DNA of 64,000 nt, from the IMG/VR virus record IMGVR_UViG_3300023109_000018; one strand, written 5' to 3'. Of the stretch, positions 19,685-52,553 are shown one piece after another. The notes beneath the pieces were generated by a model. The model was not told the DNA's origin. It ran no database searches and worked only from the letters and a program-made list of their open reading frames with translations. The position numbers and the translations under genes were made by a program. The stretch comes from a virus. How positions within the stretch are numbered: the stretch's first letter is position 1; every line of letters starts with the position of its first letter.

Positions 19685-19990
19685 TTATTCCTGCGGGAAG
19701 CCTTCTTGTACAAATACACCTATCGTACCGATTTGACCATCAGTAAGCTGCATGGCTTGTGGCCACATCATTTGCGACTGGGGACCTACTATCTCACCAT
19801 TCTTATAGAGTGTGAGCTTGGTGATGATTTCATCAGCAGATTTGTAATAGAGAGAAGGGCCAATGGCACCCTCACCACGAGCTCCATGGCAGGCTGCACA
19901 GGTATTCCACAGTTGACGAATTTCATAGAAGCGATCTGCACTTGCAGGTAGTGCGAAAAGAATGCAAGTAAAAGCGATCAAATATTTCAT
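19685..19990 (-). CDS. class I c-type cytochrome (c553-like), exported
   Basis: Signal peptide MKYLIAF...ASA, CAACH heme motif, distal MM; SD GAGG. Confidence 0.88.
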   Translation of the reverse strand: MKYLIAFTCILFALPASADRFYEIRQLWNTCAACHGARGEGAIGPSLYYKSADEIITKLTLYKNGEIVGPQSQMMWPQAMQLTDGQIGTIGVFVQEGFPQE

Positions 19991-20001
19991 AAAGGTTATC
20001 C

Positions 20002-20166
20002 TCATTTTGTATCATAAAAAACGCATGTGTATGTATGACGATTATCAGTCTCACCACACACCATGCAACGGTTTTGTTGCTCTTTATAATCAAACTGCCG
20101 GTGGTGTTTATCTTCCCATAAAGCGCGGTCGGTTAATTTCTTTTGATCTTGGGTTGTATCAGTCAT
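20002..20166 (-). CDS. small putative zinc-binding protein (54 aa)
   Basis: Translated by hand: ...RCMVCGETDNRHTYTC...; overlaps glyA stop and cytochrome SD. Confidence 0.5.
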   Translation of the reverse strand: MTDTTQDQKKLTDRALWEDKHHRQFDYKEQQNRCMVCGETDNRHTYTCVFYDTK

Positions 20167-21304
20167 TTAAGTATTTCACGATTCTCTCGGCCAAATGTGC
20201 AAACCAAATCTCATCGCGTCCTCTTGTTGTCTCAGCGGCAGTGCCGATTCTTATACCAGACGTTTCCATAAAACTTCTAGGGTCGTTTGGTATTCCATTT
20301 TTGTTGACTGTAATCCGGCGACTCTCAAGTTTATCTGCCGCCTCTCTACCCGAATATTTGCTTTTACTTAAATCGAGTAGAATGATATGGCTGTCAGTAC
20401 CGCCTGTAAGAATATCAAAACCAGATTCGGTAAAGACACCAGCCATGGCCTGTGCATTCTTAATTACCTGAGCTCCATATTTCTCAAAGTCGGTAGTAGA
20501 AGCTTCAACAAAAGCCTGAGCCTTAGCAGCAATAGTATTCATTAATGGACCACCCTGAGTACCAGGGAAGACAGAACTATTAATTCTTCTACTGTATGAC
20601 TTATCGTTCCATAGAATGATACCACCACGAGGGCCACGTAATGTCTTGTGTGTCGTACTGGTAATCACATCGGCATATTCAACTGGACTGTCATATACAC
20701 CAGCTGCAATCAGACCTGAATAATGTGCCATATCAACCATCAGCAGGGCTCCGACTTGATCGGCAATAAATCTAAATGCTTCCCAATCTATTTGTCGAGG
20801 GTAGGCTGACGCACCAGCGATAATCATTCTTGGTCTATAACTACATGCCAATTTCAAAACTTCTTCGTAGTTAATATAGCCATCTTCGTCCACACCATAT
20901 GTCATTGCGTCATAGATTTTACCGGACATATTGACTGGAGCCCCGTGCGAGAGGTGGCCACCAGATGCAAGATCCATACCTAAGATTCTATCACCGGGTG
21001 TTAAGAATGCTTGAAAGACAGCCCCGTTAGCATTTGCACCAGAATGAGGTTGGACATTGGCAAATTGGCAACCATAGAGAGATTTGAGCTGTTCGATTGC
21101 AAATGTTTCAATCTCATCCATATGGTCACAGCCATTGTAATAGCGACGACCTGGGTAACCCTCAGCATATTTGTTTGTAAAGATTGAACCACATAGTGCC
21201 ATTACCTCATCACTAGCAAAATTCTCACTCGCGATTAGCTCTATCGTAGTTTCTTGGCGTTTCATTTCATTACGCCATATTAAATCAATCTCGGGATGTA
21301 ACAA
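20159..21304 (-). CDS. glyA: serine hydroxymethyltransferase
   Basis: LIASEN, NKYAEGYPG, GGHLSHG, TTTHKTLRGPRGG (PLP Lys). Confidence 0.96.
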   Translation of the reverse strand: MLHPEIDLIWRNEMKRQETTIELIASENFASDEVMALCGSIFTNKYAEGYPGRRYYNGCDHMDEIETFAIEQLKSLYGCQFANVQPHSGANANGAVFQAFLTPGDRILGMDLASGGHLSHGAPVNMSGKIYDAMTYGVDEDGYINYEEVLKLACSYRPRMIIAGASAYPRQIDWEAFRFIADQVGALLMVDMAHYSGLIAAGVYDSPVEYADVITSTTHKTLRGPRGGIILWNDKSYSRRINSSVFPGTQGGPLMNTIAAKAQAFVEASTTDFEKYGAQVIKNAQAMAGVFTESGFDILTGGTDSHIILLDLSKSKYSGREAADKLESRRITVNKNGIPNDPRSFMETSGIRIGTAAETTRGRDEIWFAHLAERIVKYLND

Positions 21305-21548
21305 GACTTGTATCCTCCATCATTAAATGTGTTTGAACCGCTTCGTGAAACTCTCTGTAATGGCCAATATATTTATCGTCCCACCATATGTGAGGTATCT
21401 TTTGCATGTCGACATGTTCTGAACGAAGCTGTTTGTAATACTTGGATAAGCCAATGTCTTTATATTCGTACGGGATTCCGTACTTCTTTGCAAGACTTAC
21501 TGCATCATGGCAGAATCCACACTGCGCTGTGCCGTAAATTGTGATCAT
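21285..21548 (-). CDS. glutaredoxin
   Basis: IYGTAQCGFC, KIPHIW, YIG. Confidence 0.8.
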   Translation of the reverse strand: MITIYGTAQCGFCHDAVSLAKKYGIPYEYKDIGLSKYYKQLRSEHVDMQKIPHIWWDDKYIGHYREFHEAVQTHLMMEDTSLVTSRD

Positions 21549-21901
21549 GCTTTAGGTTGCTTTTCTTCCCAATCATCAATAAACGATAACTTCTTTTCTT
21601 CACCCCAACCATCTGGTCCTTCGACGAGATATTTGTTATCAGTGTCGAAAATACCCAGTATTGTTTCGCGATCGACAAGTCCCTTGTCAACCGTGTGCTG
21701 ACCTAGCCAAGATTGAGAAAACTCTTTCACTTGTTCAGCCTGCACACACTCTTCGAGCCACACTAATGCGGTCTCTTCGTCCAAGTCATGATCTTCGTTT
21801 AATTGTTGTAGTTTTTCAACTGGAATAACATATCTTTGTCTGAAGGTAGACACTACCGTTGCAACTGCATACTTGCCTTCAATTTCACTTTTCATAACCA
21901 A
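21545..21901 (-). CDS. hypothetical protein
   Basis: 118-aa ORF in operon. Confidence 0.6.
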   Translation of the reverse strand: MVMKSEIEGKYAVATVVSTFRQRYVIPVEKLQQLNEDHDLDEETALVWLEECVQAEQVKEFSQSWLGQHTVDKGLVDRETILGIFDTDNKYLVEGPDGWGEEKKLSFIDDWEEKQPKA

Positions 21902-21910
21902 ATCACCTTT

Positions 21911-22054
21911 TTAAATGAATAATAAACCTACGAAGAATCCTATATTGAGCCCTAATGAGCAGACTAATAGAAAATCCTTCGAAAAACTAGACTTCTCAAA
22001 CGTTATTACTTGCCGATCGTCCACTACCCTGTAATGTACTTTGCTGTCTTCCAT
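21911..22054 (-). CDS. small membrane protein (47 aa)
   Basis: Translated by hand; C-terminal hydrophobic helix. Confidence 0.45.
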   Translation of the reverse strand: MEDSKVHYRVVDDRQVITFEKSSFSKDFLLVCSLGLNIGFFVGLLFI

Positions 22055-22163
22055 CCGATTTGATTAATACCCTTGTCCTGATATCAGATCCAAAGTCTCG
22101 AGCATAAACCGTTTTGCCACGGTCAGGTGACTCGTAGATTTTTGGTACGTTCGTATCTTTCAT
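21996..22163 (-). CDS. small hypothetical protein (IYESPDRGKTVYAR motif)
   Basis: Translated by hand; SD AGGAG. Confidence 0.5.
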   Translation of the reverse strand: MKDTNVPKIYESPDRGKTVYARDFGSDIRTRVLIKSDGRQQSTLQGSGRSASNNV

Positions 22164-22175
22164 TTCAACAACTCC

Positions 22176-22430
22176 TTACATATTTTTGACATTATCTTGA
22201 ATTCTTGCCCAGATATATTCTGCCTCTGGGAATTCGACCATCTCGTCCACTTGCATGTCGATATAGTCTAGCTCGTCTAACGAAGCTGTGGTCACCTCTA
22301 GTTTCCACATGTCAACAATTGCCTGACTAAATGCTGCGTTATTCAATGCTTGAGGGCCAAAAGCTCTCACGAGATCCTCCAGTGAATACTCACGTGGGGG
22401 TTGTTCATTTCTTCTATCCTTTTTGGCCAT
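22176..22430 (-). CDS. hypothetical protein
   Basis: 84-aa ORF in operon. Confidence 0.55.
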   Translation of the reverse strand: MAKKDRRNEQPPREYSLEDLVRAFGPQALNNAAFSQAIVDMWKLEVTTASLDELDYIDMQVDEMVEFPEAEYIWARIQDNVKNM

Positions 22431-22860
22431 GTGCGGTATCTCCTTTCAACCAACCGATCTTTTCACCGGCTTTTACTCGACGATCATACTCTTCTACCGA
22501 ACCTGGATATCTCCAAGCCCAGACTAGCCAGAAAAGCATGAATAAACCTATACTAATCGTAGCAACTAGCTTTAATTGTAAATAAAGAATCCAAGCAAGA
22601 CTGAATAGACAGCAAGCCAACATCATATATTTAGCTTTTGTTGGATACACTCTTTTATTTGTCCAATTTTGCACATAAGGTCCAAATGTGGGATGTTCCC
22701 ACACCCATTTTTCTAGTTTAGGTGAACTTTTACTAAAACACCATAACGCAAGGAGTAGAAAAGAAGTGGTCGGAATACCCGGCACGAGGGCTCCTATGTA
22801 AGCCATCCCTACCGACAATAATCCTGCTGCTCTCCATAAATTTCTACGTATGTTCATCAA
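22414..22860 (-). CDS. ybaN: YbaN/DUF454-family inner membrane protein
   Basis: [30 protein letters not shown] motifs. Confidence 0.85.
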
Positions 22861-24043
22861 ATACTCCCTTCAAAGCTGTGACCAAGTCATGCATCATACC
22901 ATCATCATGTAATGGGGTTGGTGTAATTCTCAATCGTTCTGTTCCCACATCTACAGTGGGGTAATTTATTGGTTGAATGTATAATCCATATTTATTTAAC
23001 AAAGTATCGCTTATCGATTTACATTTCTTTGCATCACCCACCATAACGGGGACAATGTGTGTACATGCCGAATCGTGTATTTTCAATCCAGCATCTTTGA
23101 TCATTTTCTTCAAAGTAGCAGCACGTTCTTGATGCTGTTCTCTTAGATTGTTATGATCTTTTAAATAACGTATTGACGCAATAGCTCCTGCACAAACGAC
23201 AGGTGATGTTGATGTGGTGAAGATGAAGCCTGATGCGACTGATCGGATTGCATCAAGAACATCACTATCACCAGCAATATACCCACCGTGACAACCAAAC
23301 GCCTTTCCAAGTGTTCCATTTACTATATCTACCCTCTCTTCACCTATTTTCTCACAATATCCAGCTCCTGTCAACCCATAAAGACCGACTGCGTGGACCT
23401 CATCAATATATGTGATCGCATTGTATTCTTCTGCCAGATCACAAATCTCCTTAATCGGTGCGACATCTCCATCCATACTATAGACCGACTCGAAGACGAT
23501 GCAAGGTGTCTTACCTTCCATCTTGGCCCAATTTAAATAAAATTTGAGTTCACGTAGATCATTATGTTGCCAGACTTTTTTATCGGCACCACTGTGTCGA
23601 ATGCCTTGGATCATGCTAGCATGATTCTTCGAATCACTTAGATAAACAAGATTGGGAATGATTTCTGCCAAGGCAACCAATGACCATTCATTGGCGACGT
23701 AGGCTGATGTGAATAAAACAGAAGATTCTTTTCCATGTAATTCTGCCAATTCTTTTTCCAAAGTTACATGAAAATGAGATGTTCCACCAATGTTACGTGT
23801 ACCACCACTTCCAGCACCTGTCTTATCAAGAGCCGTATGCATGGCATCAATCACATATTGATTCTGACCCATACACAGATAATCATTTGAACACCAATTT
23901 ACGATATTCTTCGGAGCGTATTTTCCGTACCAAGTTGCGTTGGGAAAATCACCCTTCGTTCTTACAATGTCATTAAAGACTCGATACTTACCTTCGTCTT
24001 TTAATGCTTTAATTACATTATTAAACGGTGTCTTGTCGATCAT
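22844..24043 (-). CDS. hemA: 5-aminolevulinate synthase (Shemin/C4 pathway)
   Basis: [54 protein letters not shown]; start MIDKTPF. Confidence 0.93.
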
Positions 24044-24401
24044 TAACTCTGTCCCAAATATTGTCGGCAGTAAACCGATAGGCCCCGATACATTCATACC
24101 GAGTCCATTTTTCAATTAAGCTCAGCATATACCCATTTTCTGCATTATACAGATAATATATATGCCCAACCTTTGGTACAAAATTGTATGTCGCACGATA
24201 CACCATCTCTGTTTGTTTTGCTGCTTCTACCAACTCTTCGTATTCACGATTAAGTTGACTCAGCCTCTCTTCAAAATATTTACTGGCATTTGCTCCACGT
24301 TCTGTTTTGAAGAGGTCAGTGTCCGGCAACTGAATAGCCGGAGCACTGACATTCGAACCATAAGGTAGGAGCCCAGGGGCACTAGGCAGCGTACGCTTCA
24401 T
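24021..24401 (-). CDS. DUF2452-like hypothetical protein
   Basis: [24 protein letters not shown] motifs. Confidence 0.65.
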
Positions 24402-25584
24402 CCCAATTGCCCGATAAGCCAGCTACTTCATACTCTGTCACTCGATTCTCAAAGAAGTTAGTATGGTCTGCACCATTCAATACCCATTCGAGCCAAGAAA
24501 GTGGGTTGTCTTTTACCCTGAAGTTCGGTTTCATGCCTAATTGAATCAATCGACGATCTGTGATATATCGAATGTATTGCTTGACCTCTGCCATTTCAAG
24601 GCCTTCAGTTTCACCCATCTTATAGGCTAACTCGACAAATTTGTCTTCTAACTTAACTACCTGTCGAGACATTTCATAGATCTCAGCCTTGAATTCATCA
24701 TCCACAATACGAGGATGTTCTTGGCAGAAAACCTTAAAGAGTTTAGAGTTGCCTTCTACGTGCATTGATTCATCACGGATAGACCATTCAACAACCTTGC
24801 CCATTCCTTTCATCTTACCGAATCGTTGGAAGTTCAGTAGCATTACGAATGATGCAAAAAGTGCGACACCTTCATTGAAGACAGATTTTGCAAGAGCAAG
24901 ACCAAGACCACGAATGGTATTAACGTCTGCCTCCATCATGTATTCAATCTTATCAGCCATTTCTTTATACTCAAGAAACGCATGATATTCTTCATTTGAA
25001 AGACCTAGTGTCTCATTCAAAAGAGCATAGGCTCTCTGGTGAATACCTTCCCGAGCAGCAAACGATGAAAGCATATTGCGAACCTCGTTGTTCTTAAACT
25101 TGGGAATGAACTGATCAAAATAGTTTTGGCCAACAGCAACATCGCTTTGTGTAAAGAGGCGAAGAATGTTGGTGATGTATTCCTTTTCGACATCGGTGAT
25201 CTTGCCACCCTTCCAATCGGATACATCTTCAGAGAGATCGAGCTCGTCTTCAATCCAATGAGCTTTTTCATGTCGAGTAGTGATGTCAATAGCCCATGGG
25301 TAATGAAAAGGCTTATATGTCTCAGAAAACTCCATCAAACCACCGGATGATTTCTTAATCAAAGTATCAGCGATTTTCATTAGATCATTATATGTTCCAA
25401 TTTGCTTGTCGTCGATAAAGATTTGAGGTACCGACCGGACGTTTGGATATTTCTGGTAGAATGACATACGTTGCTCTTCGTCATCCAATTTAATTTCTGT
25501 GAAAGTAAAATTGTGTAGTTTAAACCATGCCATTGCCTTTTCACAGAACGGGCAAAATGATTTAGAGTAGATTACTACTTGCAT
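24382..25584 (-). CDS. nrdB: ribonucleotide reductase class Ia beta subunit with N-terminal glutaredoxin
   Basis: N-terminal YSKSFCPFC..SVPQIFID Grx domain; EGIH, DESMH di-iron motifs; NFFENRVTEY. Confidence 0.93.
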   Translation of the reverse strand: MQVVIYSKSFCPFCEKAMAWFKLHNFTFTEIKLDDEEQRMSFYQKYPNVRSVPQIFIDDKQIGTYNDLMKIADTLIKKSSGGLMEFSETYKPFHYPWAIDITTRHEKAHWIEDELDLSEDVSDWKGGKITDVEKEYITNILRLFTQSDVAVGQNYFDQFIPKFKNNEVRNMLSSFAAREGIHQRAYALLNETLGLSNEEYHAFLEYKEMADKIEYMMEADVNTIRGLGLALAKSVFNEGVALFASFVMLLNFQRFGKMKGMGKVVEWSIRDESMHVEGNSKLFKVFCQEHPRIVDDEFKAEIYEMSRQVVKLEDKFVELAYKMGETEGLEMAEVKQYIRYITDRRLIQLGMKPNFRVKDNPLSWLEWVLNGADHTNFFENRVTEYEVAGLSGNWDEAYAA

Positions 25585-25653
25585 TGAGGGATCCTTATAA
25601 AGATAGTTTATAATTTGTTTGTGAATGATGCTTCTCGTCTTGTTGTACTCTAT

Positions 25654-27438
25654 TTACCCCTGGCATGCCACACACTCGTCTTGATTATCTTCCTTGCCAT
25701 TTACAAAACTACCAGGAGTCACCAAGTTGTCTAGCTTCTCTCGCTCAACCTTTTGTGAGACGTTTTCAGCCCTGTTTGATGATTCTGTGCGAAGATAATA
25801 TAAACCCTTGCAGCCCTGTTTCCAAGCTTGATAATGTACCTTATGGAGATAACCTTTGTCGGCTCCAGCAGGGAAGAATATATTCAAGGATTGTCCTTGA
25901 CACAAATGTTCTTGTCGATCACCAGCCAATCGAATGAGCCACAACTGATCAAGTTCGATTGCTGTTTTAAATACATCTTTCACATGATCAGACAAGAAAC
26001 GTAGATGTTGTACCGAGCCACCATTCGTAATAATTGATGACCAGATTTCATCGGTATTCTGACCCAGACGATCTAGTTCTGCTTCTAGGTATGGGTTCTT
26101 ATTTAGATGTGATCCCACACGAGTACGAGATGTAAATGCATTGGCTTTCCAAGGCTCGATACTGGGTGATGTATCTACAATCATTGAAGAATTTGCATTC
26201 GGAGCAATTGCCAACATGTGAGCATTACGGCGACCCGTCCCCTTCATGTCTGGAGCTTCTCCTTTCTCTTTACCCATCAGCAGTGTAGCTTTTACGGCTC
26301 TTGTTTTCATCAATGAAAAAATCTCGTCATTCTTTTCTACTGCTTCTTGTGAAGCGAATGGGATCATATTCTTTTGAAAGTATGAGTGTAGACCCATGGC
26401 CCCAAGGCCGAGTGATCTCTCACGCTGGGCACTAAATCGAGCTCGGTGAATTTCATCACCAGCATGATCAATGAAAAATTGCAGTACATTGTCGAGATAG
26501 ACTATAAGATCTTCGACCATCGTCGTATTTTTCCAGTCGTCGTATTTCTCTACATTGACTGAGGATAGACAACACACAGCAGTACGATCTTCACTAGTCA
26601 CGAGGTGAATTTCATTGCATAGATTAGAACCACGAATCTTTAGACCGAGGTCTTGCTGAGACTGTGGTAGTGCTCTATTTGCAGTATCGATAAAGTTTAG
26701 GTAAGGTTCACCTGTTCGATATCGAGTTTCTAATAGATGTTCCCACAATTTACGAGCCTTGATTGTATCTCTCACTGAATCATCATCGGGATCAATCAAA
26801 TCCCAATCCGCTCCGGCTTCAACAGCCTGCATGAATTTATCAGTTATATTCACAGCATGATGTAGGTTGAGATTCTTACGATTGACATCACCAGTTGGAA
26901 TTCTCATGTTTGAAAATTCAATGATGTCTGGATGGTCACAGTCGATATAGGCTGCATAAGATCCCTTACGAGTTCTACCTTGACGATACGCAACCATATC
27001 TGCATCAACAGTGTGAAGAAATGGCATCGGACCGGGAGCCTTCTTTGATACAGCTCGAATATCGGACCAATGACCACCGACACCACCACCCTTGACTGAC
27101 AACCACCGAAGCTCGGCACTATGGTCAATAAGACCCTCTAATGAATCTGGTACGTAAGTAAGAAAACACGAAATGGGTAACGCCTTTACAGGCTCACCTT
27201 CGATAGGAGCGTTTGAGAGAACTGGTGAAGCGAACATAAACCAACCCTTCGAAACGTAATCATAAATGCGTTGAGCAAGTTCTAAATCACCATAGGAATA
27301 AGCCACTGCTGCACGTGCAAATGCTTGTTGGGGAGTTTTCTCGTCTTCCCGACAGTAATAATCTTTCAACAACTTTGCTGACTGCTCCGATAGCAGTTTA
27401 TTTCTTCTATTATCAATTCGGATACCTAGGTGATCCAT
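25654..27438 (-). CDS. nrdA: ribonucleotide reductase class Ia alpha subunit (no ATP cone)
   Basis: SCFL, GSNLCNEI, CCLSS, APNANSS, C-terminal CVACQG. Confidence 0.95.
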   Translation of the reverse strand: MDHLGIRIDNRRNKLLSEQSAKLLKDYYCREDEKTPQQAFARAAVAYSYGDLELAQRIYDYVSKGWFMFASPVLSNAPIEGEPVKALPISCFLTYVPDSLEGLIDHSAELRWLSVKGGGVGGHWSDIRAVSKKAPGPMPFLHTVDADMVAYRQGRTRKGSYAAYIDCDHPDIIEFSNMRIPTGDVNRKNLNLHHAVNITDKFMQAVEAGADWDLIDPDDDSVRDTIKARKLWEHLLETRYRTGEPYLNFIDTANRALPQSQQDLGLKIRGSNLCNEIHLVTSEDRTAVCCLSSVNVEKYDDWKNTTMVEDLIVYLDNVLQFFIDHAGDEIHRARFSAQRERSLGLGAMGLHSYFQKNMIPFASQEAVEKNDEIFSLMKTRAVKATLLMGKEKGEAPDMKGTGRRNAHMLAIAPNANSSMIVDTSPSIEPWKANAFTSRTRVGSHLNKNPYLEAELDRLGQNTDEIWSSIITNGGSVQHLRFLSDHVKDVFKTAIELDQLWLIRLAGDRQEHLCQGQSLNIFFPAGADKGYLHKVHYQAWKQGCKGLYYLRTESSNRAENVSQKVEREKLDNLVTPGSFVNGKEDNQDECVACQG

Positions 27439-27447
27439 GTCTGCTCC

Positions 27448-28116
27448 TTATTCTGTTACGTATTCTTTCGCTAGTGGAAAGATTCGATAAATTGCGGTTG
27501 CACAAGCCCGTGCAAGTTCCATATGTTCCTTTTGGGTACCATTATCACTACGTAATTCAATGTAGTGAATCCAAGACCGTATGGTACCATTGACATAGAG
27601 TCGCGACACTGTAAGACCTTCAGGCAGTACTGATCTGGCCTGTTCTTTTGCAATCCCATTTTCGATTGCCCATTTATAGGCTAGTTTGGCTTCATGAATA
27701 ATACTCAATTGTTTCAGCTGCCAATCTTTTTTGAGTTCTGTGTCAGTTGTCGCGACACTATTTTGTCGGTTCTTCTCATCTTGTAAACGTGCTTCACGGA
27801 CTACAAAGTCAAGATCCTCGGTGGGATCTGCATAACGTTGACTAAATTCTTGAAAACTAAAACTACGATGACGCAATAATTGTCGAGCTATATCACGTGT
27901 AGTTTCAATTTCAAAACATGCAGAGGCCATTTCAAATGGCGACCAATGTTTATGTTTTGCCAGATATCTAAGAAGTTTCTCACTTGTTTCAGTATTCATC
28001 TGATTGGTTGGGTTTGAAACCCTTGCACAGAATGCTATAAGATCCTGAATATTATCAAGACCTTCTTGTTTCGTGGCTATTGTCGGCTGGGAGTAGCTGA
28101 TTAACCTTGCTTTCAT
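27448..28116 (-). CDS. thyX: flavin-dependent thymidylate synthase
   Basis: HWSPFE, RHRSFSFQEFSQRY, QKEH. Confidence 0.95.
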   Translation of the reverse strand: MKARLISYSQPTIATKQEGLDNIQDLIAFCARVSNPTNQMNTETSEKLLRYLAKHKHWSPFEMASACFEIETTRDIARQLLRHRSFSFQEFSQRYADPTEDLDFVVREARLQDEKNRQNSVATTDTELKKDWQLKQLSIIHEAKLAYKWAIENGIAKEQARSVLPEGLTVSRLYVNGTIRSWIHYIELRSDNGTQKEHMELARACATAIYRIFPLAKEYVTE

Positions 28117-28119
28117 TAT

Positions 28120-29142
28120 CTAAGTCCTTCTCCATTGTTGTAATTTTAATTTTGCTTCAAGTCCGCTGTAGATGTTATCTTTAATAACATGTTGAACGTC
28201 GCTGAAACCTGCCAATATCATCTCGTTTATATCCTTACCTGGCACATTATGTGGCCATATACAAATCTTGTATCCCTGTTCTATAAGTTTTTCCATTCGT
28301 TTATGGATCTCCTTATTACGAGGTTCAGCATCAAAAACAAAGACAGCATTTTCTTTCACATTTTTAAGGGCTGATGTTCCACCATCCGCACCAGCCATTG
28401 CCACGGAATTGCGTATGAAAAAACTGTCAATAGCACCTTCAACCACGTAGTACTGTCTACTAAAATCAACTGTGTCTAAGCCAAAGATCTTAGGTCGGTC
28501 ATCGAACATGATAGTAAGATAACGCACTCCCTTGGGATCAAAGCCTCGGGCAGATACACCAAAGACATTATTGTCTTTGTCTAAAAATGGTATAACCAAT
28601 CGTGGCTCGTCTTTACCTACATTTTCGAATTTATTTGGGATGATCGAGTTGATCCATCCTTTGAATTTTGGTGCGTAGTAAAGACGATAGTGCTGATTCG
28701 GAGGAATCTGCCTCTGATTTATATATCCCTTGACTGGGTGATTCCACTGGAGTTGACTAACTTTTTTAATTGCTTTTAAAGGGTTATTTTTCTTAGTAAA
28801 CTTCGGAGCAGCAGTTTTGAATTTGCTGTCGTCTGAGGTTGTAGTGATAGAGTTGTTTGCCTTTTTGATGAACTTCTCAGCGACATAATCATTGTACATC
28901 ATCTGGTCTTGACCCTTCAGAAAGAAAGGGAACGACATGCTGGCACCACAGTTGTGGCAATAATAGAGAAGCCCATTATCTTTTTCTAGGAGCCAACCTC
29001 GGGATTTGGAGCGAGACTTTTGAGAGTCTCCGCAGATAGGACATCTGAAATTAATCTTGTATGGGTTGGTCGAACGGATCTTGAAATTTTCCAATCTTGC
29101 CGAAAGAAGCTGGGCATACTGGATATCAACAAAATCTAGCAT
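28120..29142 (-). CDS. DNA primase (gp61)
   Basis: CPICGDS..CHNC zinc finger, RLVIPF, VEGAIDS TOPRIM, KDINEM. Confidence 0.95.
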   Translation of the reverse strand: MLDFVDIQYAQLLSARLENFKIRSTNPYKINFRCPICGDSQKSRSKSRGWLLEKDNGLLYYCHNCGASMSFPFFLKGQDQMMYNDYVAEKFIKKANNSITTTSDDSKFKTAAPKFTKKNNPLKAIKKVSQLQWNHPVKGYINQRQIPPNQHYRLYYAPKFKGWINSIIPNKFENVGKDEPRLVIPFLDKDNNVFGVSARGFDPKGVRYLTIMFDDRPKIFGLDTVDFSRQYYVVEGAIDSFFIRNSVAMAGADGGTSALKNVKENAVFVFDAEPRNKEIHKRMEKLIEQGYKICIWPHNVPGKDINEMILAGFSDVQHVIKDNIYSGLEAKLKLQQWRRT

Positions 29143-38991: not shown

Positions 38992-39004
38992 ATAAAATGA
39001 GTCT

Positions 39005-40970: not shown

Positions 40971-41457
40971 GATACTTTAACTCGATATTTTTGTTGTTTT
41001 CAATGTGAGATCTTGTTCCCATTGGTGCATGGATTATTGTAGGCACATCAATTAATTCATTCCAATAACGAATCCATTCAGTATTCAAATCGGCTGCAAT
41101 TGCTTGTCTTACCCAATGTTCTTTATTGAATATCCTATCGGTAGATGATACCCAATTGTTTGAGAACAATAAATCGAAACCGTACAGTTCAAACTCATCA
41201 TATCCTTCGGTTCTCAAATGGTTATATGCATTATGTCCAGTATTCCAAGCCACATTAATACCACCTTTCTGTGTCATAAATGGCTTTGGCAGTACCTTTA
41301 ATTTTGGGTTATTCTTTTGACGCTTAATGACCTTTTGGTCACTGGCAAATATCACATCGACATCTGCCTCTGTCATATTGAAGCCTACCTTATACCCTTC
41401 CAAATCGGACGAATAATATTTACTCGATGGACCATTGCCTAACAGAATTGCTTTCAT
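40951..41457 (-). CDS. hypothetical, sialyltransferase/MptE-like Rossmann fold
   Basis: ILLGNGPS, NTGH.A, LYGFD. Confidence 0.5.
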   Translation of the reverse strand: MKAILLGNGPSSKYYSSDLEGYKVGFNMTEADVDVIFASDQKVIKRQKNNPKLKVLPKPFMTQKGGINVAWNTGHNAYNHLRTEGYDEFELYGFDLLFSNNWVSSTDRIFNKEHWVRQAIAADLNTEWIRYWNELIDVPTIIHAPMGTRSHIENNKNIELKYHEDTDH

Positions 41458-41978
41458 GCGAGAAGGTCACGTTCACGATACCGACCAGTCGTCTTCACTA
41501 CAGTAGGAATGTCACCACGTAAATCCTGAATGATATCTACCCACTCCTGATGCGATTTGAGAGTACAGTGTGCGTTCTCACCATTGGGTAATATGGCTTT
41601 GGCAGGTGAGGTCGCGATCTGGAAATACACAAATTTGGTAGCGTAACTGTAGATTTCTTTGATGACATCACGGACAAATTCTTCGGGTATGTGTTCCAAT
41701 ACATCTGTATTAATGACACCATCCCAAAGACCCTTAGGTTTATTATTGAATGCTCTAACGCCTGGGTCGTATCGATAGATCTCAGTAAGACCCCAATATT
41801 GATGCAGATTGTGTGGTGGGTTGTATTGTTCTCCATGACCACAGCCATAATCAATCACAGATTTGCAACGAAACTGTTCCAGCATTTCTTTGATATCATC
41901 TTTTGCTCTAATGACCGGATCATTATTTTCATATCCGCCTTTATCATAGAACTCTTGGTATTGCTCTAGGTATTTCAT
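41454..41978 (-). CDS. class I SAM methyltransferase
   Basis: VIDYGCGHG, YDP, DVLEHIPE. Confidence 0.85.
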   Translation of the reverse strand: MKYLEQYQEFYDKGGYENNDPVIRAKDDIKEMLEQFRCKSVIDYGCGHGEQYNPPHNLHQYWGLTEIYRYDPGVRAFNNKPKGLWDGVINTDVLEHIPEEFVRDVIKEIYSYATKFVYFQIATSPAKAILPNGENAHCTLKSHQEWVDIIQDLRGDIPTVVKTTGRYRERDLLA

Positions 41979-42697
41979 TGTGGTCCTTTTAATATATGAG
42001 ATCGATCAAAATCAGCTTTCATTTTATCTTTATGATTTCGGTGATAGTGAATAAGGCTTGCATCGAACCGCTTTTCGATTGGATTCAGGCCTAAATGATA
42101 ATTAAATTGTACTGGTAATGCTGAGTGCTTACCTTGATTACGAATCAGGCTGTTTATGATGCCCTGATCAAACCCACCCATTTGATTCTCTAGGCTGGTT
42201 CTTTTCTTGTCTCTTTCTTCAATTGTTTGTGCAAATTCGAACATCTCGTCGTACATGCTTCGAGGGAATATCACCACACCCGAATTGATATGACCATGTT
42301 TACCGAACCACTCTAACCCAGGCTTATTTGTCCAGCGATTGGTCGACATCATCCACCAAGCAGAGATGGCCTCGGCCGAAGCATGATCGAAAACATTCTT
42401 AGAATTTTTTGTGGCGAGAATATCACTATCGATGAAACAAAGATAGTCGAAATTATGAAACCATTCACGAGTACCCCGATCTATAAAAGGAGTAAAGATA
42501 CCGTAAAAAGGTGGGATGTTATTAGGTAGTTCCTGATCGAAAAAAGCATATGTGGCACCAACGCTTTCTGCATATGCTGATATGGATGCTCGGGACATAT
42601 TGTGATAACCAGTACCTGTTTTTACATAGGCACCAGCTCGAGACTTTGCAAGTACTTCTTGGTTTGGATCTCTATAATATTGATAAATTAAATTCAT
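41975..42697 (-). CDS. GT-A glycosyltransferase (GT8/GT34-like)
   Basis: FIDSDI DxD, INSGVVI, FDQG, IHY. Confidence 0.78.
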   Translation of the reverse strand: MNLIYQYYRDPNQEVLAKSRAGAYVKTGTGYHNMSRASISAYAESVGATYAFFDQELPNNIPPFYGIFTPFIDRGTREWFHNFDYLCFIDSDILATKNSKNVFDHASAEAISAWWMMSTNRWTNKPGLEWFGKHGHINSGVVIFPRSMYDEMFEFAQTIEERDKKRTSLENQMGGFDQGIINSLIRNQGKHSALPVQFNYHLGLNPIEKRFDASLIHYHRNHKDKMKADFDRSHILKGPQ

Positions 42698-45900: not shown

Positions 45901-47355
45901 TTATCTTAATTCAACACTGTCGTCAAACACGCTACGTCTTTTTTTACCTCTCATACTGGAACCAATGTCAGTTTTATCAAATACCGGAGTATCATCATTG
46001 CGCTTGAATGAGGAAGAACCACCAGAATTATTGCCACCATCTAAATTGATGTTCTGCTGTGCACTTTCTTCAAGATCGTAGATCTTCATTTTGGCACGAT
46101 CAATACCGACAAGGAATCGTCGATAATATCCAAGGTCACCCCATCGATTCTTCAGCTGTTTGAGCATCACCTGCCCAAGTTCATCTAAATGTTCGGAAGT
46201 AACAATGCCGAGGATGCAATCTGCTGTATGAGTAATACCCATTGACTCGGAAGTGTTTGTAAGATCCACGTCTGAATTACCATAGCCATCGCGATTAAAC
46301 TGAGAAGAAGTGACAATCGCACAATTGAATTCCATTGCAAGTCCACGTATTTCCTCAGCAATTGATTTGACAAGTGTATATGAATTTGCTGCCGCAGCCC
46401 CACGAACTCTGGAAGATGCACAAATATTTAGATAATCAACAAATACAACGTCAGGTACGAAGCCTTTTTTCATTCTCAATTCATTCAGTAAGTGCCGCAT
46501 GTGACCAGCGTGAGCCGATCCGGTGGGGTACTCTTTAATCACAAGTTTGCCAGGAGTCTTGGTCTTGTATCTACCCATTCGTTTCTCATAAACATCTCGT
46601 GGGCATTCAGTGAGTTCATCTAGCGTGATGTCCATAATATTGGCATCAATACGCCGACCGATTTCTTCTTCAGCCATTTCCATGGTGACATATAATACAT
46701 TCTTACCATACATCAAATGATTAGCAGCGAAGTGACATTTCAATAAAGATTTACCACCACCAGTCGTGGCAAGTAATACAGTCATTGATTTGCGAGGCAG
46801 ACCACCCTTGGTGATCTTGTTCAGAATATCAATATCAAAAGGAATTCTTTCCTCTTTTCTGTGATAATAGTCATAACGATCTTCGAATTGTTCTAAGAAG
46901 TCGTGACCGACACTCGAGTCAAAGTTGATTCCGAGCGAATCAGATAAGATTTTTGGTATCGAGCCTTTGTCAGTGTCTTTGTCTTGGCCATCTAAGATTA
47001 GAATAGCCTTACGGATTGAGTTATACAAATCTTTGTCTTGGCAGAACTTCTCAGTCTCCGTGATCAAAAATTCTTGACTCGTATCTTTGTCGACTTGTAA
47101 TTCGTCAACAATGCCCATCACCTGGGAATATGTTTCTTCGTTTAGATCTTTGCGTTTGTCGATGGTGAGTTTGAGAGCCTCCGTTGAAGGAGGCTCTCTG
47201 TATTGCTCAACATAATCTACAAACGTTGAAAAGACCTTTTGAAGTGCGTTTTCGTCGAAATATTCTTCCTTAATATAGGGGTATACCTTTCGGTAGTACT
47301 CATCATTAAGTATCAAATTCGACAGTATCGTCTTCTCTAGCATCCTTAACCTCAT
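45901..47355 (-). CDS. replicative DNA helicase (gp41)
   Basis: ATTGGGKS, TMEMAEE, KEYPTG, VDYL, KQLKNR. Confidence 0.95.
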   Translation of the reverse strand: MRLRMLEKTILSNLILNDEYYRKVYPYIKEEYFDENALQKVFSTFVDYVEQYREPPSTEALKLTIDKRKDLNEETYSQVMGIVDELQVDKDTSQEFLITETEKFCQDKDLYNSIRKAILILDGQDKDTDKGSIPKILSDSLGINFDSSVGHDFLEQFEDRYDYYHRKEERIPFDIDILNKITKGGLPRKSMTVLLATTGGGKSLLKCHFAANHLMYGKNVLYVTMEMAEEEIGRRIDANIMDITLDELTECPRDVYEKRMGRYKTKTPGKLVIKEYPTGSAHAGHMRHLLNELRMKKGFVPDVVFVDYLNICASSRVRGAAAANSYTLVKSIAEEIRGLAMEFNCAIVTSSQFNRDGYGNSDVDLTNTSESMGITHTADCILGIVTSEHLDELGQVMLKQLKNRWGDLGYYRRFLVGIDRAKMKIYDLEESAQQNINLDGGNNSGGSSSFKRNDDTPVFDKTDIGSSMRGKKRRSVFDDSVELR

Positions 47356-48370
47356 CAGCCATTAGCAGTTTAAATTTACTTTCAATATAATTATTGAACC
47401 GAGGATCAGCAACAAGACCTTCAAAGAACTCATCGTCCTGTTCAATGTCTTTAGAGCGTCTCTTAGGTTCGATAATCTCGCCAGTATCCATGTTAACTAT
47501 ATTATACCATCCTTGATTGGCCTTTGTCAAGTGCCCTGATTCAAGTGCGAGTTCAAAAAGGGAAGACCATTTCTGAATACCCGAGTCATATAATACTTTA
47601 AATGGAAGTTTTGATTTCTCTTTTACATAACGAGATTTTTCAATGTTGATTGTGAATTTAAAGCCTGCAAGATCAGTACCATCTTTCTCTTGTGCCTTAG
47701 AGATAATAAAGATCTGATTGGCTGAATAGTAAATACCAGTACCACCGGATACAATATTCTTAGGGAACAGACCAATCTCCTTGTAGGTATGATTGATTGC
47801 GACCAATGGAATATCTTTGCCTGTGACCTTGGGAGTTACAATGCGGAAGAGTGATTTCAATTGTTTAGCACGTGACATGTCAGCAACAGATTTCTCATTC
47901 TCGGCATCTTCTACCTCTTTACGAGAAGCCAAGTTACCAACAGAGTCTATCATAATAAAAACTTTATCACCTTTGTCGATTTCATTCAATCGTTTGGTGA
48001 GGTCAAACTTGAGCTGTTCGACATCTTCAATCGGTATGTGCAATACACGATCGGTATCGATACCAATGCCTTCAAGATATTCAGGCGTGATACCGTATTC
48101 CGAATCATACAGCATTGCAATACTGTCTTTGTACTTCTTCAGATATGCTTTCATACAATAAAGTGACAAGAGAGTCTTGAAACTTTTTGATTCACCAGCA
48201 ATAACAGTCAGACCAGGGATCAGACCACCATGAAGTGAACCACTGAAAGCAATATTCACGATTGGAAGTTCAGTTTGAATGGGATCTTTCTCACCGAAGA
48301 AGGAAGATTTTGACAGGACCGAAGAGCCCTTGACCGAACCGGCCTTTAACATTTTATCAAGCAAACTCAT
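47306..48370 (-). CDS. uvsX: RecA-like recombinase
   Basis: AGESKSFKT, YDSEYG, IDSVGNL, SGGTG. Confidence 0.95.
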   Translation of the reverse strand: MSLLDKMLKAGSVKGSSVLSKSSFFGEKDPIQTELPIVNIAFSGSLHGGLIPGLTVIAGESKSFKTLLSLYCMKAYLKKYKDSIAMLYDSEYGITPEYLEGIGIDTDRVLHIPIEDVEQLKFDLTKRLNEIDKGDKVFIMIDSVGNLASRKEVEDAENEKSVADMSRAKQLKSLFRIVTPKVTGKDIPLVAINHTYKEIGLFPKNIVSGGTGIYYSANQIFIISKAQEKDGTDLAGFKFTINIEKSRYVKEKSKLPFKVLYDSGIQKWSSLFELALESGHLTKANQGWYNIVNMDTGEIIEPKRRSKDIEQDDEFFEGLVADPRFNNYIESKFKLLMADEVKDAREDDTVEFDT

Positions 48371-48751: not shown

Positions 48752-49678
48752 TTAACTTCTAGCAAGTTCTTTAAAAATTGATAGATCGTCGTCATCGTCA
48801 TCTTCTACAACACTAGATGCCATTGGAGATTCTGCAACCGGAGTCTCGGGTTCGGCCGAAGCCATGTTACCAAGATCTAAGTCATCAGTCGTGTCTTCCA
48901 TAGGGGAAGGTGCAACCGGTGCATCTGCAGTAATATCAAGTACCCGATAGAGCTTAGTCTTCAACTCGGTGTAAGACTTGAAGTTCTTAGGATCAATCAC
49001 CTCGTCAAGCGAGTGTTCTTGTGTCCATACCGCTTCCATCTCTGAATCATCATCAAAGAGTGGAGTCGGCGCATCGAACTCTGACTTATCGTAGTTGGGG
49101 TATCCTTCAAACTGTCGAATCTTCAGACGGAAGTTTGCACCTTCCCAAAGATCGAATGGGTTTACTGGATCCTCATCTTCAAAGCTAGGATTCATCAAGT
49201 CATTCAACTTATCAAAGATCTTTTTACCGAACTGATACATGAATACCTTACCTTCGTTTTCGGGATTTGCAGAATCCTTCACAACGTAGATATTAGAAAC
49301 ATACTTGAGTCGACGTTTCTGCTTTCGAGCCTGCTCTTTGTCGGCATCAATACCAGTGTTCCAGAGCTTAGAGTTAAACTCAGAAACAGGGTCATCATTG
49401 CCAAGAGTGGTCAGTGAGTTTTCGATGTACCAAAGGCCGGTAGGTCCTTGGAAGCCATGATCCCAGATACGAACGAATGGCATTTCTTCACCGTTTGGTG
49501 CAGGCAAGAAACGAATGATTGCGAAACCATTGCCAGCCTTGTCACGTACGGGTTTCCAGAATTTACCTTCATTAGGATCTGAATAGCTTTTTGTTTGGAT
49601 TTTGTCAAGCTGTTGATTGAGCTTGTCGAGGGATTTGCTTCGATTTTTCTTAAGTGCAGCGAAGTCTGTAGGTGCCAT
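48752..49678 (-). CDS. single-stranded DNA-binding protein (gp32)
   Basis: FWKP, IRFLP, HGFQG, YIENSLTT, FDL.EGANF, NYDKSEF, acidic tail. Confidence 0.95.
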   Translation of the reverse strand: MAPTDFAALKKNRSKSLDKLNQQLDKIQTKSYSDPNEGKFWKPVRDKAGNGFAIIRFLPAPNGEEMPFVRIWDHGFQGPTGLWYIENSLTTLGNDDPVSEFNSKLWNTGIDADKEQARKQKRRLKYVSNIYVVKDSANPENEGKVFMYQFGKKIFDKLNDLMNPSFEDEDPVNPFDLWEGANFRLKIRQFEGYPNYDKSEFDAPTPLFDDDSEMEAVWTQEHSLDEVIDPKNFKSYTELKTKLYRVLDITADAPVAPSPMEDTTDDLDLGNMASAEPETPVAESPMASSVVEDDDDDDLSIFKELARS

Positions 49679-49723: not shown

Positions 49724-50326
49724 TCAAATAAAGTGTTCGCGGACAATGTCTTTGAACTTCTTTTCATCAATAGCCAGAAAGGGTTTATACTTTCTAGCAG
49801 TTCTTATTATATCACGCGAAACTATTTTGTCAACCAATTTTTTGTCCCAATAATCAAAAATATTTGCGAAATGGACTAATAGAGTAAATGTCTCTATTGA
49901 GATCTGTTTCCGCAGATATGTCGTCATCAAAATTGGATGTTGACCATCGCGTGATACAAAATTAGCTTGATAATTTTCATCAAGCTGTTTCAGATCAGAC
50001 TTGAAAATGTAAGAGAGTGACTCTTGTTTTCGTTTCCAATCTACATAGACTTGTTCACCTTCGTGTTCAAGTATATCCTTTATCCAGCAGTTGGGTTTTA
50101 CCAACATATTGGACATAATTCTGTTGATGTAATCCTCTTTTTGTGCCAGTTTGGCAAAGAAGAATGCATCGTTTCGGGCTCTAAATGAATCCATTGAAGC
50201 CCTAACTTTACCATTGTATTTATGAAAATCGTAACCGTCAGTTGTAAAATGCTTCTTTAAAGCAAGATATTTGACGTAGGCCTCAAATGAGGTTTCATTC
50301 ACATAGGTCGGTGATGTTAGGCTCAT
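49724..50326 (-). CDS. helicase loader (gp59)
   Basis: YLALKKHFTTDGYDFHKYNG, HP, KYKPFL. Confidence 0.9.
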   Translation of the reverse strand: MSLTSPTYVNETSFEAYVKYLALKKHFTTDGYDFHKYNGKVRASMDSFRARNDAFFFAKLAQKEDYINRIMSNMLVKPNCWIKDILEHEGEQVYVDWKRKQESLSYIFKSDLKQLDENYQANFVSRDGQHPILMTTYLRKQISIETFTLLVHFANIFDYWDKKLVDKIVSRDIIRTARKYKPFLAIDEKKFKDIVREHFI

Positions 50327-50534
50327 CTTGTTTTACCATTCTCAAATCAACAGCTTCAGTTCTTACTTTTTCTTTCAATATCGAAGACTTCTTAACGATG
50401 TCAGCGATAGATTCGATCTCAAGATTGTTTTTCTCGGCGTAATGGACGAGAGCATCGATGTATGGAACACCGCGCGCAATCATGTTTGAGATGTCATGGT
50501 GGATCTTTTCGGGGGTCATTTTCACAACCGACAT
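50295..50534 (-). CDS. late transcription coactivator (gp33)
   Basis: YIDA.V.Y.E.N.LE.E.I..I....LKEKV..EA..L; synteny with gp59-gp32. Confidence 0.85.
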   Translation of the reverse strand: MSVVKMTPEKIHHDISNMIARGVPYIDALVHYAEKNNLEIESIADIVKKSSILKEKVRTEAVDLRMVKQDEPNITDLCE

Positions 50535-50562
50535 TAATACCTCCTTGATTTTTGAAGAGTAC

Positions 50563-50591
50563 ATTATATCAGGATATGCATACAATGTCAA
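50563..50591 (-). promoter_or_regulatory. sigma70-type promoter
   Basis: TTGACA-N17-TATAAT upstream of gp33. Confidence 0.8.
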
Positions 50592-50603
50592 CCAATTTCG
50601 CAA

Positions 50604-50850: not shown

Positions 50851-50981
50851 TGTGACACTGTCATTGCTATGATAATAAAGGGTAGGGCTATAGGCAAGGT
50901 TACTGCTGTTGTGAGGTACACTGCATCACAGAACAAACATAATTTACCATTGTTGCGGAAGTTAGACAGAAGGTTGTTCAT
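50847..50981 (-). CDS. small membrane protein with CxxC (44 aa)
   Basis: Translated by hand: MNNLLSNFRNNGKLCLFCDAVYL...LPIALPFIIIAM; SD GGAGG; ATGA overlap. Confidence 0.55.
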   Translation of the reverse strand: MNNLLSNFRNNGKLCLFCDAVYLTTAVTLPIALPFIIIAMTVSQ

Positions 50982-51195
50982 GACCCTCCTGCTCCATTCG
51001 GTGGTTCGCTATAATCAAATTTTTCATCTCAGAAAAACTCCTTTCATTTGGGGGATTTAAGGTGTAAAAGATAGTTTATTGTTACCTTTTGTAACAATCT
51101 TTCATTTTACGATAATATATATACAGCTAGATCGTCAGAATGCGTTATTTCTTCCATTTATTTTTGTCATACAATATATTACATAGCGGAATGTG

Positions 51196-51888
51196 TTAAG
51201 GATCGATCTCCTCAAACAATACATCATTGACATATTGCTCTATCTTACCTTCGTCTAGGTTCATTGCCCTAAGTGAGTTCCAGAGCTGCTTATTCTTTTT
51301 CTGATTAACACAGTAATTATTATGCCAATCCAAATGATCAACACCATTCTTCCAAAGAGCCCCATGTTGGACTTCTGAAAGATAGTAAGAAATCAATTTT
51401 AATGCATGCTCACAAAACTGCTCTGTTTCTTCACCCTCACGAATATTTCCTGCTGCAACCATATGAGGTGAAAATATCTCTTTGGCCCAATCGGGTAGCT
51501 CTCGTTCTTTCTTCCATACCAAATCTCTGGTGGCAAGACCAAATGTGGTAACAATGGGGTGCGTATCGTGAGACACGGGAGAGAAATCAAAAAAAGAACC
51601 ACTGATTTTATTCGGACCTGCAACAACATCGAGCCCCAAGATAGGGTAATGTAATGAGGCATCTGGGAAGACATTAATGTGTATCAACCAGAGTTTTGGC
51701 TTGCCTGGCAATGGCTCAATTATTTTTAGGTGTGCCTTACGAATGGAATCAGATCGCCAAAAGAGATCTGTCCAACCTTCAAACTCATTGACATGCTTTT
51801 CGTTATCAAATGATTCTAAATGATTGTCGAATAGTTTAATAATATCGGCCGACAGCTCTCGCAGTCTATTCAGTAATGGTGTATCCAT
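51196..51888 (-). CDS. pcyX: ferredoxin-dependent bilin reductase (PcyX/PcyA group)
   Basis: RKAHL, LIHINVFP, PILGLDVVAG, FFDFSP, RELPDWAKEIFS, YCVNQKKN; adjacent to heme oxygenase. Confidence 0.85.
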   Translation of the reverse strand: MDTPLLNRLRELSADIIKLFDNHLESFDNEKHVNEFEGWTDLFWRSDSIRKAHLKIIEPLPGKPKLWLIHINVFPDASLHYPILGLDVVAGPNKISGSFFDFSPVSHDTHPIVTTFGLATRDLVWKKERELPDWAKEIFSPHMVAAGNIREGEETEQFCEHALKLISYYLSEVQHGALWKNGVDHLDWHNNYCVNQKKNKQLWNSLRAMNLDEGKIEQYVNDVLFEEIDP

Positions 51889-51902
51889 AATGTATCCTGT
51901 GG

Positions 51903-52451
51903 TTAATCAGTTGTTGAGAAAATTGTATCTAATTCCCCAAATAATTTTGTTGCGTATTCAAAGCAAATAATTGCCTCATCGACCATATCATCGTACAACA
52001 ATTCTCGAATACCAGAAATCAATTCTCGTCTATTCTCAAATTCATACATTGAACCCGAGCCTGGTACTCTCTTTTTAATAATCTGACCACCGTGCATATC
52101 GCCGAAATGTCTTACATAAAGGTGGGCCATTAGATCGTCGTTATCTTCTAGGCTTAAAATATGATCGATGTAGTCATCAACAGATCTTAGGTTTTCAGAA
52201 ATCCATGTTAAGTTGTAGGACTCTTCTAATTCACACAAATCGGCCAGGATCTTGTCTGCCCTAAAGACACCGGTGAGTTCTTGTGCTAGATGTACACGTT
52301 CCTCAAGTGCCCGGTAAATTTCATATTGTGATTTTAAATAATATTGATATGCGACAGGAGTAATATCTCCACTAATCAACATACCGGCGAACCTTGATTG
52401 TTCGGCCATATCGTGGTGTTTCTGGGTTAATTGTTTTAGACTGGTAGCCAT
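51903..52451 (-). CDS. hemO: heme oxygenase
   Basis: T..HH..AE proximal His, HLYVRHFGDMHGGQII, EA..CF; start MATSLK with SD GAGGG. Confidence 0.92.
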   Translation of the reverse strand: MATSLKQLTQKHHDMAEQSRFAGMLISGDITPVAYQYYLKSQYEIYRALEERVHLAQELTGVFRADKILADLCELEESYNLTWISENLRSVDDYIDHILSLEDNDDLMAHLYVRHFGDMHGGQIIKKRVPGSGSMYEFENRRELISGIRELLYDDMVDEAIICFEYATKLFGELDTIFSTTD

Positions 52452-52539
52452 ATTCCCTCTCATTATTATTAGTGCCCCGGTTCGGTAGCAGGGCTGGGGC
52501 CACACCCTGTAGCGAGGCTGCGACTGCCTCGAGTGAATT

Positions 52540-52553
52540 TATTTATATAAATA
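52540..52553. promoter_or_regulatory. overlapping divergent T4 late promoters
   Basis: Palindrome TATTTATATAAATA gives TATAAATA on both strands. Confidence 0.75.

Follow-up and report, generated by a model that had tools for sequence, protein, structure and literature searches.

Viral genes for 5-aminolevulinate (ALA) synthase, termed valaS, are known from phage contigs of both marine and fresh waters (Wegner et al. 2024, Nat Commun; PMC11480375). They occur there in three forms: alone; in a three-gene cassette with hemO, the gene for heme oxygenase, and pcyA/X, the gene for a bilin reductase of the ferredoxin-dependent type (FDBR); or as a "broken cassette", in which hemO and the FDBR gene stand together and alaS lies elsewhere. 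In the same study, the His342/Cys400 site was found to be lost in many of the viral enzymes (vAlaS), an Escherichia coli ALA auxotroph was rescued by a freshwater valaS (CB_2), and supply of iron was discussed as an idea. The text and the text supplements of that paper make no mention of DUF454/YbaN, of glyA, which encodes serine hydroxymethyltransferase (SHMT), or of a phage cytochrome c. Other phage genes of heme synthesis, hemF and hemC, have been reported in a deep-ecotype pelagimyophage (Zaragoza-Solas et al. 2020; PMC7029224). The subject of the present analysis is a stretch of 64,000 nucleotides from the IMG/VR virus record IMGVR_UViG_3300023109_000018, referred to below as the window, in which alaS, hemO and an FDBR gene occur together with glyA, a DUF454 gene and a gene for an exported cytochrome c (Table 1).

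An original prediction, made from the letters of this DNA, had joined these six genes into a single co-selected programme. All six lie where it had placed them, on the minus strand and in open frames; their products score above curated family cut-offs, and therefore their presence is not a matter of chance. Profile scores and structure alignments bear out the identification of each gene, and the proposed pathway logic, in which ALA synthase feeds host heme synthesis and the heme then passes to HemO and a bilin reductase, is right and already published (PMC11480375), as are two of the checks that the prediction had named. In our judgement, the window very probably derives from a marine T4-like phage, as yet uncultured, in which the known viral tetrapyrrole set takes the form of a broken cassette divided between two conserved accessory islands, with DUF454 as a specific companion of valaS and with glyA and the cytochrome c gene as independent accessories. 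The pairing of alaS with DUF454 is the one new point here.

The assignment of the ALA synthase is clear at the level of family models. Its product scores 565.4 bits on TIGR01821 (EC 2.3.1.37), for which the cut-off is 338.55, whereas the sister models return 314.6 (BioF), 309.6 (Kbl) and at most 219 bits (SPT), each under its own cut-off. It aligns end to end with two solved structures, PDB 7x98 (E 2e-135) and 2bwn (E 3e-123). The lysine that binds pyridoxal phosphate (PLP; Lys248 in Rhodobacter capsulatus) is present, GTLGKAFG of the window aligning with GTLAKAYG of 2bwn, and is invariant among 15 viral AlaS sequences. Both residues of heme feedback are absent from the window's enzyme: Lys340 occupies the position of R. 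capsulatus His342, and the C-terminus (...KGVFDEHT) is without Cys400. The gene probably starts at the ATG at 24043, its open reading frame (ORF) extending up to a TTG at 24115. The DUF2452-like ORF that precedes it, the end of which falls just inside alaS, is carried by only part of the clade.

For comparison, related loci were fetched from IMG/VR by means of each gene, and their neighbours were scored with the window's proteins. A relative of alaS was found in at least 503 viral stretches; the best 80 viral alaS loci, grouped at a nucleotide identity of 97% or more in alaS, yield 63 genotype clusters, of which 55 are informative. The three-gene form of the cassette is not among the loci of this sample. 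GenBank phage matches to alaS and DUF454 were rejected, because all of them are Kbl/BioF or YbaN genes in bacterial-looking or transduced records and not phage homologues.

In the first island, alaS follows nrdA-nrdB, and in about half of the genotype clusters it stands directly behind nrdB. The second island consists of hemO and the FDBR gene, just upstream of gp59. The distance from alaS to hemO is 27 kb in the window and 26-33 kb on five contigs that are long enough to span both islands (G001, G002, G006, G031 and G065). With hemO and the FDBR gene adjacent, alaS far removed and T4-like core genes between them, the arrangement is that of the published broken cassette. For hemO-FDBR, relatives are encoded by at least 592 viral stretches. 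Among the best 80 FDBR loci, none has alaS within 8 kb; hemO is directly upstream of the FDBR gene in most of them, and gp59 follows 1-3 kb downstream unless the contig ends first. The pair is found without alaS in G063, G064, G005 and G062, the last of these a record of 194 kb that has terminal repeats and is rated as complete. Contigs that carry alaS and show no hemO were not counted as truly lacking it, since hemO would be expected about 30 kb away and most of them end before that point. The two islands are thus separate and each conserved, and alaS is an optional addition.

Of the 55 informative genotype clusters, 54 have a DUF454 gene no more than 3 kb from alaS. The spacing ranges from overlapping frames to a gap of 2.6 kb, and the flanks of the pair vary as well, nrdB being present upstream or not, and either orf118 or an epimerase gene being found downstream. 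DUF454 is located downstream of alaS in most loci and directly upstream in four (L380, L385, L389 and L393). On a contig of 362 kb (L129), overlapping alaS and DUF454 genes are followed by SodFe, hemE, hemF and hemC. The pairing does not extend to bacterial DUF454 genes: none of 66 bacterial and archaeal DUF454 loci (L157-L222), which include Agrobacterium, Rhizobium, Acidimicrobiales and a metagenome-assembled genome (MAG) of Pelagibacteraceae, has alaS, hemO, glyA or a cytochrome c gene within 8 kb. A few "genome" loci contain the pair; these are contigs of 2-335 kb binned to non-alphaproteobacterial MAGs and most likely represent mis-binned phage DNA.

Some of these loci have features of their own. 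In L393 (9588-11591), two distinct DUF454 copies, 61% and 46% identical to that of the window, directly flank alaS, one on each side. L129 is a viral-looking contig in a group of ENA contigs of up to 362 kb (L129-L133); its run of heme genes, at about 6800-12300, also holds an unknown gene, and PHO4-like, lipase and transaldolase genes are nearby. The phage-type alaS-DUF454 pair was seen in MAG contigs assigned to Neomarinimicrobiota, Polynucleobacter, Vibrio and Crocinitomicaceae (L145, L150, L151 and L154), with alaS 67-70% identical to that of the window.

The DUF454 protein of the window matches nearly the whole of PF04304 (model positions 1-114 of 115) with 111.2 bits against a cut-off of 35.1. 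On NF007818, the equivalog model for E. coli YbaN, it reaches only 66.5 against a cut-off of 163, and is therefore a member of the family, not a YbaN ortholog. The AlphaFold model is all-helical, with a mean predicted local distance difference test (pLDDT) score of 83, and a membrane location is predicted from the hydrophobic helices. The viral subfamily possesses an additional, invariant C-terminal tail beyond the Pfam domain, WRYPGSxxE together with conserved Arg, Gly, Trp and Lys residues. Structural comparison added little: Foldseek gave no match of the model in the PDB at E ≤ 0.001, and VIA-align returned only helical-hairpin matches over residues 1-46, their Z scores of up to 7.4 being background for helical proteins. 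The predicted complex of a vAlaS dimer with DUF454 received a score of 0.00 in a run without controls, and speaks neither for nor against binding. A literature search found, among the papers covered, none containing both "DUF454" and "aminolevulin", and nothing useful on the function of DUF454/YbaN. A general link between DUF454 and bilins was considered and dropped, because Pelagibacter phage Mosig and cultured cyanophages carry hemO and an FDBR gene without DUF454.

The genes of the second island look intact, as do the other four of the six. In HemO, a histidine in QKHHDMAE aligns with that of SEEHKAAE in 5kzl, the best solved heme oxygenase, and the distal motif GDMHGGQ aligns with GDLSGGQ of the same structure. 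The best solved relative of the FDBR is PcyX (5owg, E 9.7e-36), with PcyA at about 1e-13, and its catalytic pair, His70 and Asp87, is invariant. At the position of PcyX Asp55 (PcyA Glu76), six clade members, namely the window and five relatives, have Lys; the residue is Asp in Mosig and Glu in freshwater phage forms. The reductases with Lys55 may, judging from this substitution, constitute a distinct product class.

Upstream of hemO is a T4-type late-promoter-like octamer, TATAAATA, and a second copy on the opposite strand faces a lipase gene. The octamer occurs 7 times in the window, against 3.3 expected, and is absent from the run of genes between nrdA and the cytochrome gene. This distribution hints at an early supply of ALA and a late opening of heme; the alaS and hemO-FDBR islands are separate, and their times of expression may differ.

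We propose the following sequence of events. In the first island, valaS stands after nrdA-nrdB with DUF454 directly behind it, while glyA, the small CxxC protein and the cytochrome c gene are the variable extras in this phage. The vAlaS, without both heme-feedback residues, would make ALA; its activity is presumed from that of another valaS (PMC11480375), the complementation in E. coli that the original prediction had named as a check being in print for that freshwater gene. Host enzymes would then carry ALA to heme, which fits with the finding that hemB, hemC and hemH were not found in the related contigs searched, including the 169-kb G002 (77% complete). HemO would convert heme to biliverdin, iron and carbon monoxide, and the reductase would make a bilin, expected to be phycoerythrobilin (PEB) by analogy with PcyX, the product being uncertain owing to Lys55. 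Because only genes for the first step of heme synthesis and for heme breakdown were found in the relatives, the phage would rely on its host for the middle steps, for reductant and for any bilin receptor. As a best guess, DUF454 would be a partner on the membrane side, whose task is to handle ALA or porphyrin or else to position the enzyme there.

Several observations weigh against this reading or parts of it. DUF454 is present without alaS in related phages (L021, L125-127, G019-G029 and G062-G064, the complete 194-kb genome included), and could be a backbone gene beside which alaS happens to sit. Within the set anchored by nrdB, the presence of alaS is matched no less closely by orf118, grx and SNase than by DUF454, and shared ancestry therefore inflates the alaS-DUF454 count there. 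With Lys55 in place of an acidic residue, PEB cannot be assumed as the product of the reductase. The late-promoter call depends on a single octamer, and as many sites turn up in 4 of 100 shuffled versions of the window. Finally, with respect to the identity of the host, even the nearest cultured relatives of the gp41-like helicase are only 49-51% identical to it.

The first group of these objections amounts to an alternative explanation, in which the alaS-DUF454 pair reflects nothing but gene order: DUF454 would be a backbone membrane gene, for example for control of the envelope or of infection, and alaS would have been inserted beside it once and inherited in that position. It would agree with this that in some phages DUF454 stands directly before the epimerase gene or among sugar-nucleotide genes. 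However, the adjacency outlives changes of context, since nrdB is upstream in only about half of the clusters and other flanks are found in the rest; it also outlives the changes of spacing and of order described above, including the four loci with DUF454 upstream and the two copies of L393. Moreover, the pair adjoins hemE, hemF and hemC in a distant contig of jumbo size, and in 29 control phage records chosen independently, through glyA or cytochrome c, neither DUF454 nor alaS is present in any. On balance, inheritance of a gene order is a serious contender that we rate somewhat below even chances, and a true functional link between alaS and DUF454 is slightly favored. The narrower proposal that DUF454 is a dedicated membrane partner of the phage ALA synthase, holding the enzyme at the membrane or moving or buffering ALA or porphyrins, is tentative and, in our opinion, rather doubtful in this specific form.

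Another alternative concerns the purpose of the pathway and not its composition. The tetrapyrrole genes might serve iron supply and respiration, vAlaS feeding host cytochromes, HemO freeing iron late, and the reductase merely removing biliverdin. The idea of iron supply has been raised before (PMC11480375). No bilin-binding apoprotein was visible to the original prediction, and this holds beyond the window: phycobiliprotein-like, GAF and ferredoxin genes were not found in the related contigs searched, including the 169-kb G002. The late-promoter-like site at hemO and the location of alaS in an early-type nucleotide block point in the same direction, as does Mosig, in which hemO and the reductase gene cluster with a ferrochelatase-like gene and genes for 2-oxoglutarate (2OG)-Fe oxygenases. 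The reductase, however, is strongly conserved, is paired with hemO throughout the viral stretches counted above, and keeps its His/Asp pair invariant, which argues that the bilin itself is selected for. Iron or respiration as the purpose instead of pigment is possible, although we regard it as unlikely.

The status of glyA and of the cytochrome c gene is different. The glyA product is a clear SHMT, with 555.8 bits on NF000586 (cut-off 335) over model positions 2-379 of 404, and its short form of 381 residues is kept in relatives. Viral glyA loci in IMG/VR number 79, with 42-95% identity, and alaS lies within 8 kb of glyA in only 7 of them, which represent four genotypes, all from the clade of the window itself. 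Of 23 long glyA records that fall outside it, two complete genomes among them, none carries alaS and 3 carry hemO, and cultured T4-like phages of Aeromonas possess glyA without alaS. As glyA is found in the nrdA-nrdB-thyX block and ThyX consumes methylene-tetrahydrofolate, recycling of folate is the simpler role: most likely, glyA regenerates methylene-tetrahydrofolate for ThyX. Glycine, the by-product of SHMT, may be used by vAlaS too, as a side benefit. The 54-residue CxxC protein beside glyA is 69-91% identical in L001, L003 and L005; since L005 has it without a cytochrome gene, the small gene travels with glyA. It was also observed that glyA occurs on contigs labelled as giant-virus MAGs (L247, labelled GVMAG in IMG/VR, and other glyA loci), where it is 68-70% identical to that of the phage, and on contigs whose completeness estimates imply genomes far larger than 200 kb.

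The cytochrome is of class I, with a signal peptide (...ALPASA|D, with an AxA site), the heme motif CAACH and a distal Met region, QMMWPQAM, that aligns with those of 8yts and 2zzs. With homologues of 101 residues, translation probably begins at M6 (19990). Relatives form 56 metagenomic protein clusters with 52-96% identity. Among the 23 viral cytochrome c loci in IMG/VR, alaS is present in only two genotypes, and none of six long records contains alaS or hemO. In phages without alaS, too, the cytochrome gene stands in this place, with nrdB on one side and the epimerase gene on the other.

Neither glyA nor the cytochrome c gene belongs to a fixed module; each is an independent accessory. They are common on many marine phage contigs from which alaS is absent and, for the most part, hemO too, which is the lack of correlation that the original prediction had itself named as fatal to it. 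DUF454 does belong with alaS. As for whether the full set had been reported before, the core of alaS, hemO and FDBR is in print, and the other three genes are unmentioned there. One continuous programme, from serine through glycine, ALA and heme to bilin, with iron for NrdB and the 2OG-Fe oxygenases and heme for the cytochrome, is chemically connected at every step, and it can point to glyA, alaS, DUF454 and the cytochrome gene lying within 4.5 kb on one strand, to the recurrence of this order in L001 and in the L003/L004/L014 genotype, which are the closest relatives, and to glyA following alaS-DUF454-orf118 in 10 of the 41 alaS clusters whose downstream flank reaches at least 6 kb, but it is already largely refuted by the lack of correlation and we consider it very improbable.

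The window bears on how phages control the tetrapyrrole metabolism of abundant marine heterotrophs, and on why phages of non-photosynthetic hosts make bilins. It adds no new step to the pathway; its contribution is to separate neighbours that are noise (glyA and cytochrome c) from the one that is signal (DUF454), and to flag the Lys55 branch of PcyX-like reductases, the product of which may differ. If the link between valaS and DUF454 were true, it would provide the first functional handle on a widespread, uncharacterised family of bacterial membrane proteins, and valaS-DUF454 would be the real unit of the viral Shemin module. The link is cheap to test in the published E. coli ALA-auxotroph system.

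With respect to its setting, the window has a GC content of about 41%, and nearly all of its genes are on the minus strand. The nearest cultured relatives of the gp41-like helicase are those of Caulobacter phage Cr30 (51% identity), Sinorhizobium phage PhiM12 (50%) and Methylophilales phage Melnitz (49%); the T4-type core genes, together with this distance of the cultured relatives, identify the source as an uncultured T4-like phage. The stretch 19685-24401 occurs in at least 13 seawater metagenome runs. Zero-mismatch contigs from one RNA library span every bin of 17800-28200, which is a weak sign of transcription because of possible carry-over of DNA. The conserved island gene orf118 has no match in Pfam, NCBIfam or PHROG, and PHROGs contain no family for DUF454, the cytochrome, orf118, orf84, orf54 or the DUF2452-like ORF.

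Other parts of the window are recorded here as side observations. At 14564-18868 on the minus strand are genes for a dCMP deaminase, a GT17-like glycosyltransferase, a 2OG-Fe(II) oxygenase and an NAD-dependent sugar epimerase/dehydratase; the last of these genes directly follows DUF454 in several relatives. A P-loop kinase (Zeta_toxin/AAA_33) and then a 694-residue protein with a cytidylyltransferase-like domain and DUF5824 are encoded at 35752-39078 (minus strand), and could be a pair for NAD salvage or end healing. The phage also contains a run of genes for glycosyltransferase family 25, sulfotransferase and methyltransferase at 39005-42697 (minus strand), and also 54310-55152. A single tRNA-Arg (TCT) is found at 58263-58339, minus strand.

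Table 1. Features of the window discussed in the text, with their positions and the matches or characteristics on which the assignments rest.
Feature	Position	Strand	Basis or remark
Exported class I c-type cytochrome (c553-like)	19685..20005	-	PF00034, 27.4 bits vs 21.3; PDB 8yts, E 4e-9
54-aa CxxC...HxxxC small protein	20002..20166	-	RCMVCGETDNRHTYTC; bridges glyA and the cytochrome gene
Serine hydroxymethyltransferase (glyA), 381 aa	20159..21304	-	PF00464, E 1.5e-145
Glutaredoxin	21285..21548	-	NCBIfam GrxA/Grx3-type matches, all below cut-offs; kept in the island of relatives
orf118, conserved island gene	21545..21901	-	Follows DUF454 in most related loci, with 33-83% identity there
DUF454/YbaN-family inner-membrane protein (predicted)	22414..22860	-	PF04304, E 3.6e-32; overlaps the end of alaS by 17 nucleotides
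5-Aminolevulinate synthase (valaS)	22844..24043	-	TIGR01821; PDB 7x98, 2bwn
DUF2452-like ORF, 126 aa	24021..24401	-	PF10504, E 2e-8; wedged between nrdB and alaS, overlapping both
Nucleotide block: glutaredoxin-NrdB fusion, NrdA, ThyX	24382..28116	-	PF00268 with PF00462, PF02867, PF02511
Primase	28120-29142		
gp41-like helicase	45901-47355		T4-type replication
UvsX	47306-48370		
gp32	48752-49678		
gp59	49724-50326		
Late-transcription coactivator	50295-50603		
Ferredoxin-dependent bilin reductase (FDBR), PcyX-like	51196..51888	-	PF05996, 61.7 bits vs 31
Heme oxygenase (HO-1 family)	51903..52505	-	PF01126, 68.5 bits vs 23
T4-type late-promoter-like TATAAATA	52540..52547	-	35 nucleotides upstream of hemO

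Among described systems, the broken cassette of PMC11480375 is the closest to the window. Both are T4-like aquatic contigs with adjacent hemO and FDBR genes and with valaS elsewhere, and in both the viral ALA synthase keeps the PLP lysine and lacks His342 and Cys400. The window differs from the published contigs in that alaS is fixed behind nrdB, 27 kb from hemO, and in that its GC content lies above the 30-38% of the marine contigs. The reductase resembles the PEB-forming phage enzyme PcyX (PDB 5owg, PcyX_EBK42635) in fold family and in the pair equivalent to His88 and Asp105 of PcyA, and departs from it in the Lys that replaces Asp55.

Pelagibacter phage Mosig EXVC030M (MT647606) is likewise a T4-like phage, cultured on a marine alphaproteobacterium, with adjacent hemO and FDBR genes. 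Its FDBR is the best GenBank phage match to that of the window, yet only 33% identical; moreover, its hemO-FDBR pair adjoins neck genes instead of gp59, and it has a ferrochelatase-like gene and neither alaS nor DUF454. In the deep pelagimyophages (PMC7029224), the heme genes form the same kind of cluster as that beside alaS-DUF454 on L129, whereas the searched relatives of the window are without hemB, hemC and hemH. Lastly, E. coli YbaN and the other bacterial DUF454 proteins share with the viral subfamily a full-length match to the family, but only the viral proteins carry the extra invariant tail and are paired with alaS.

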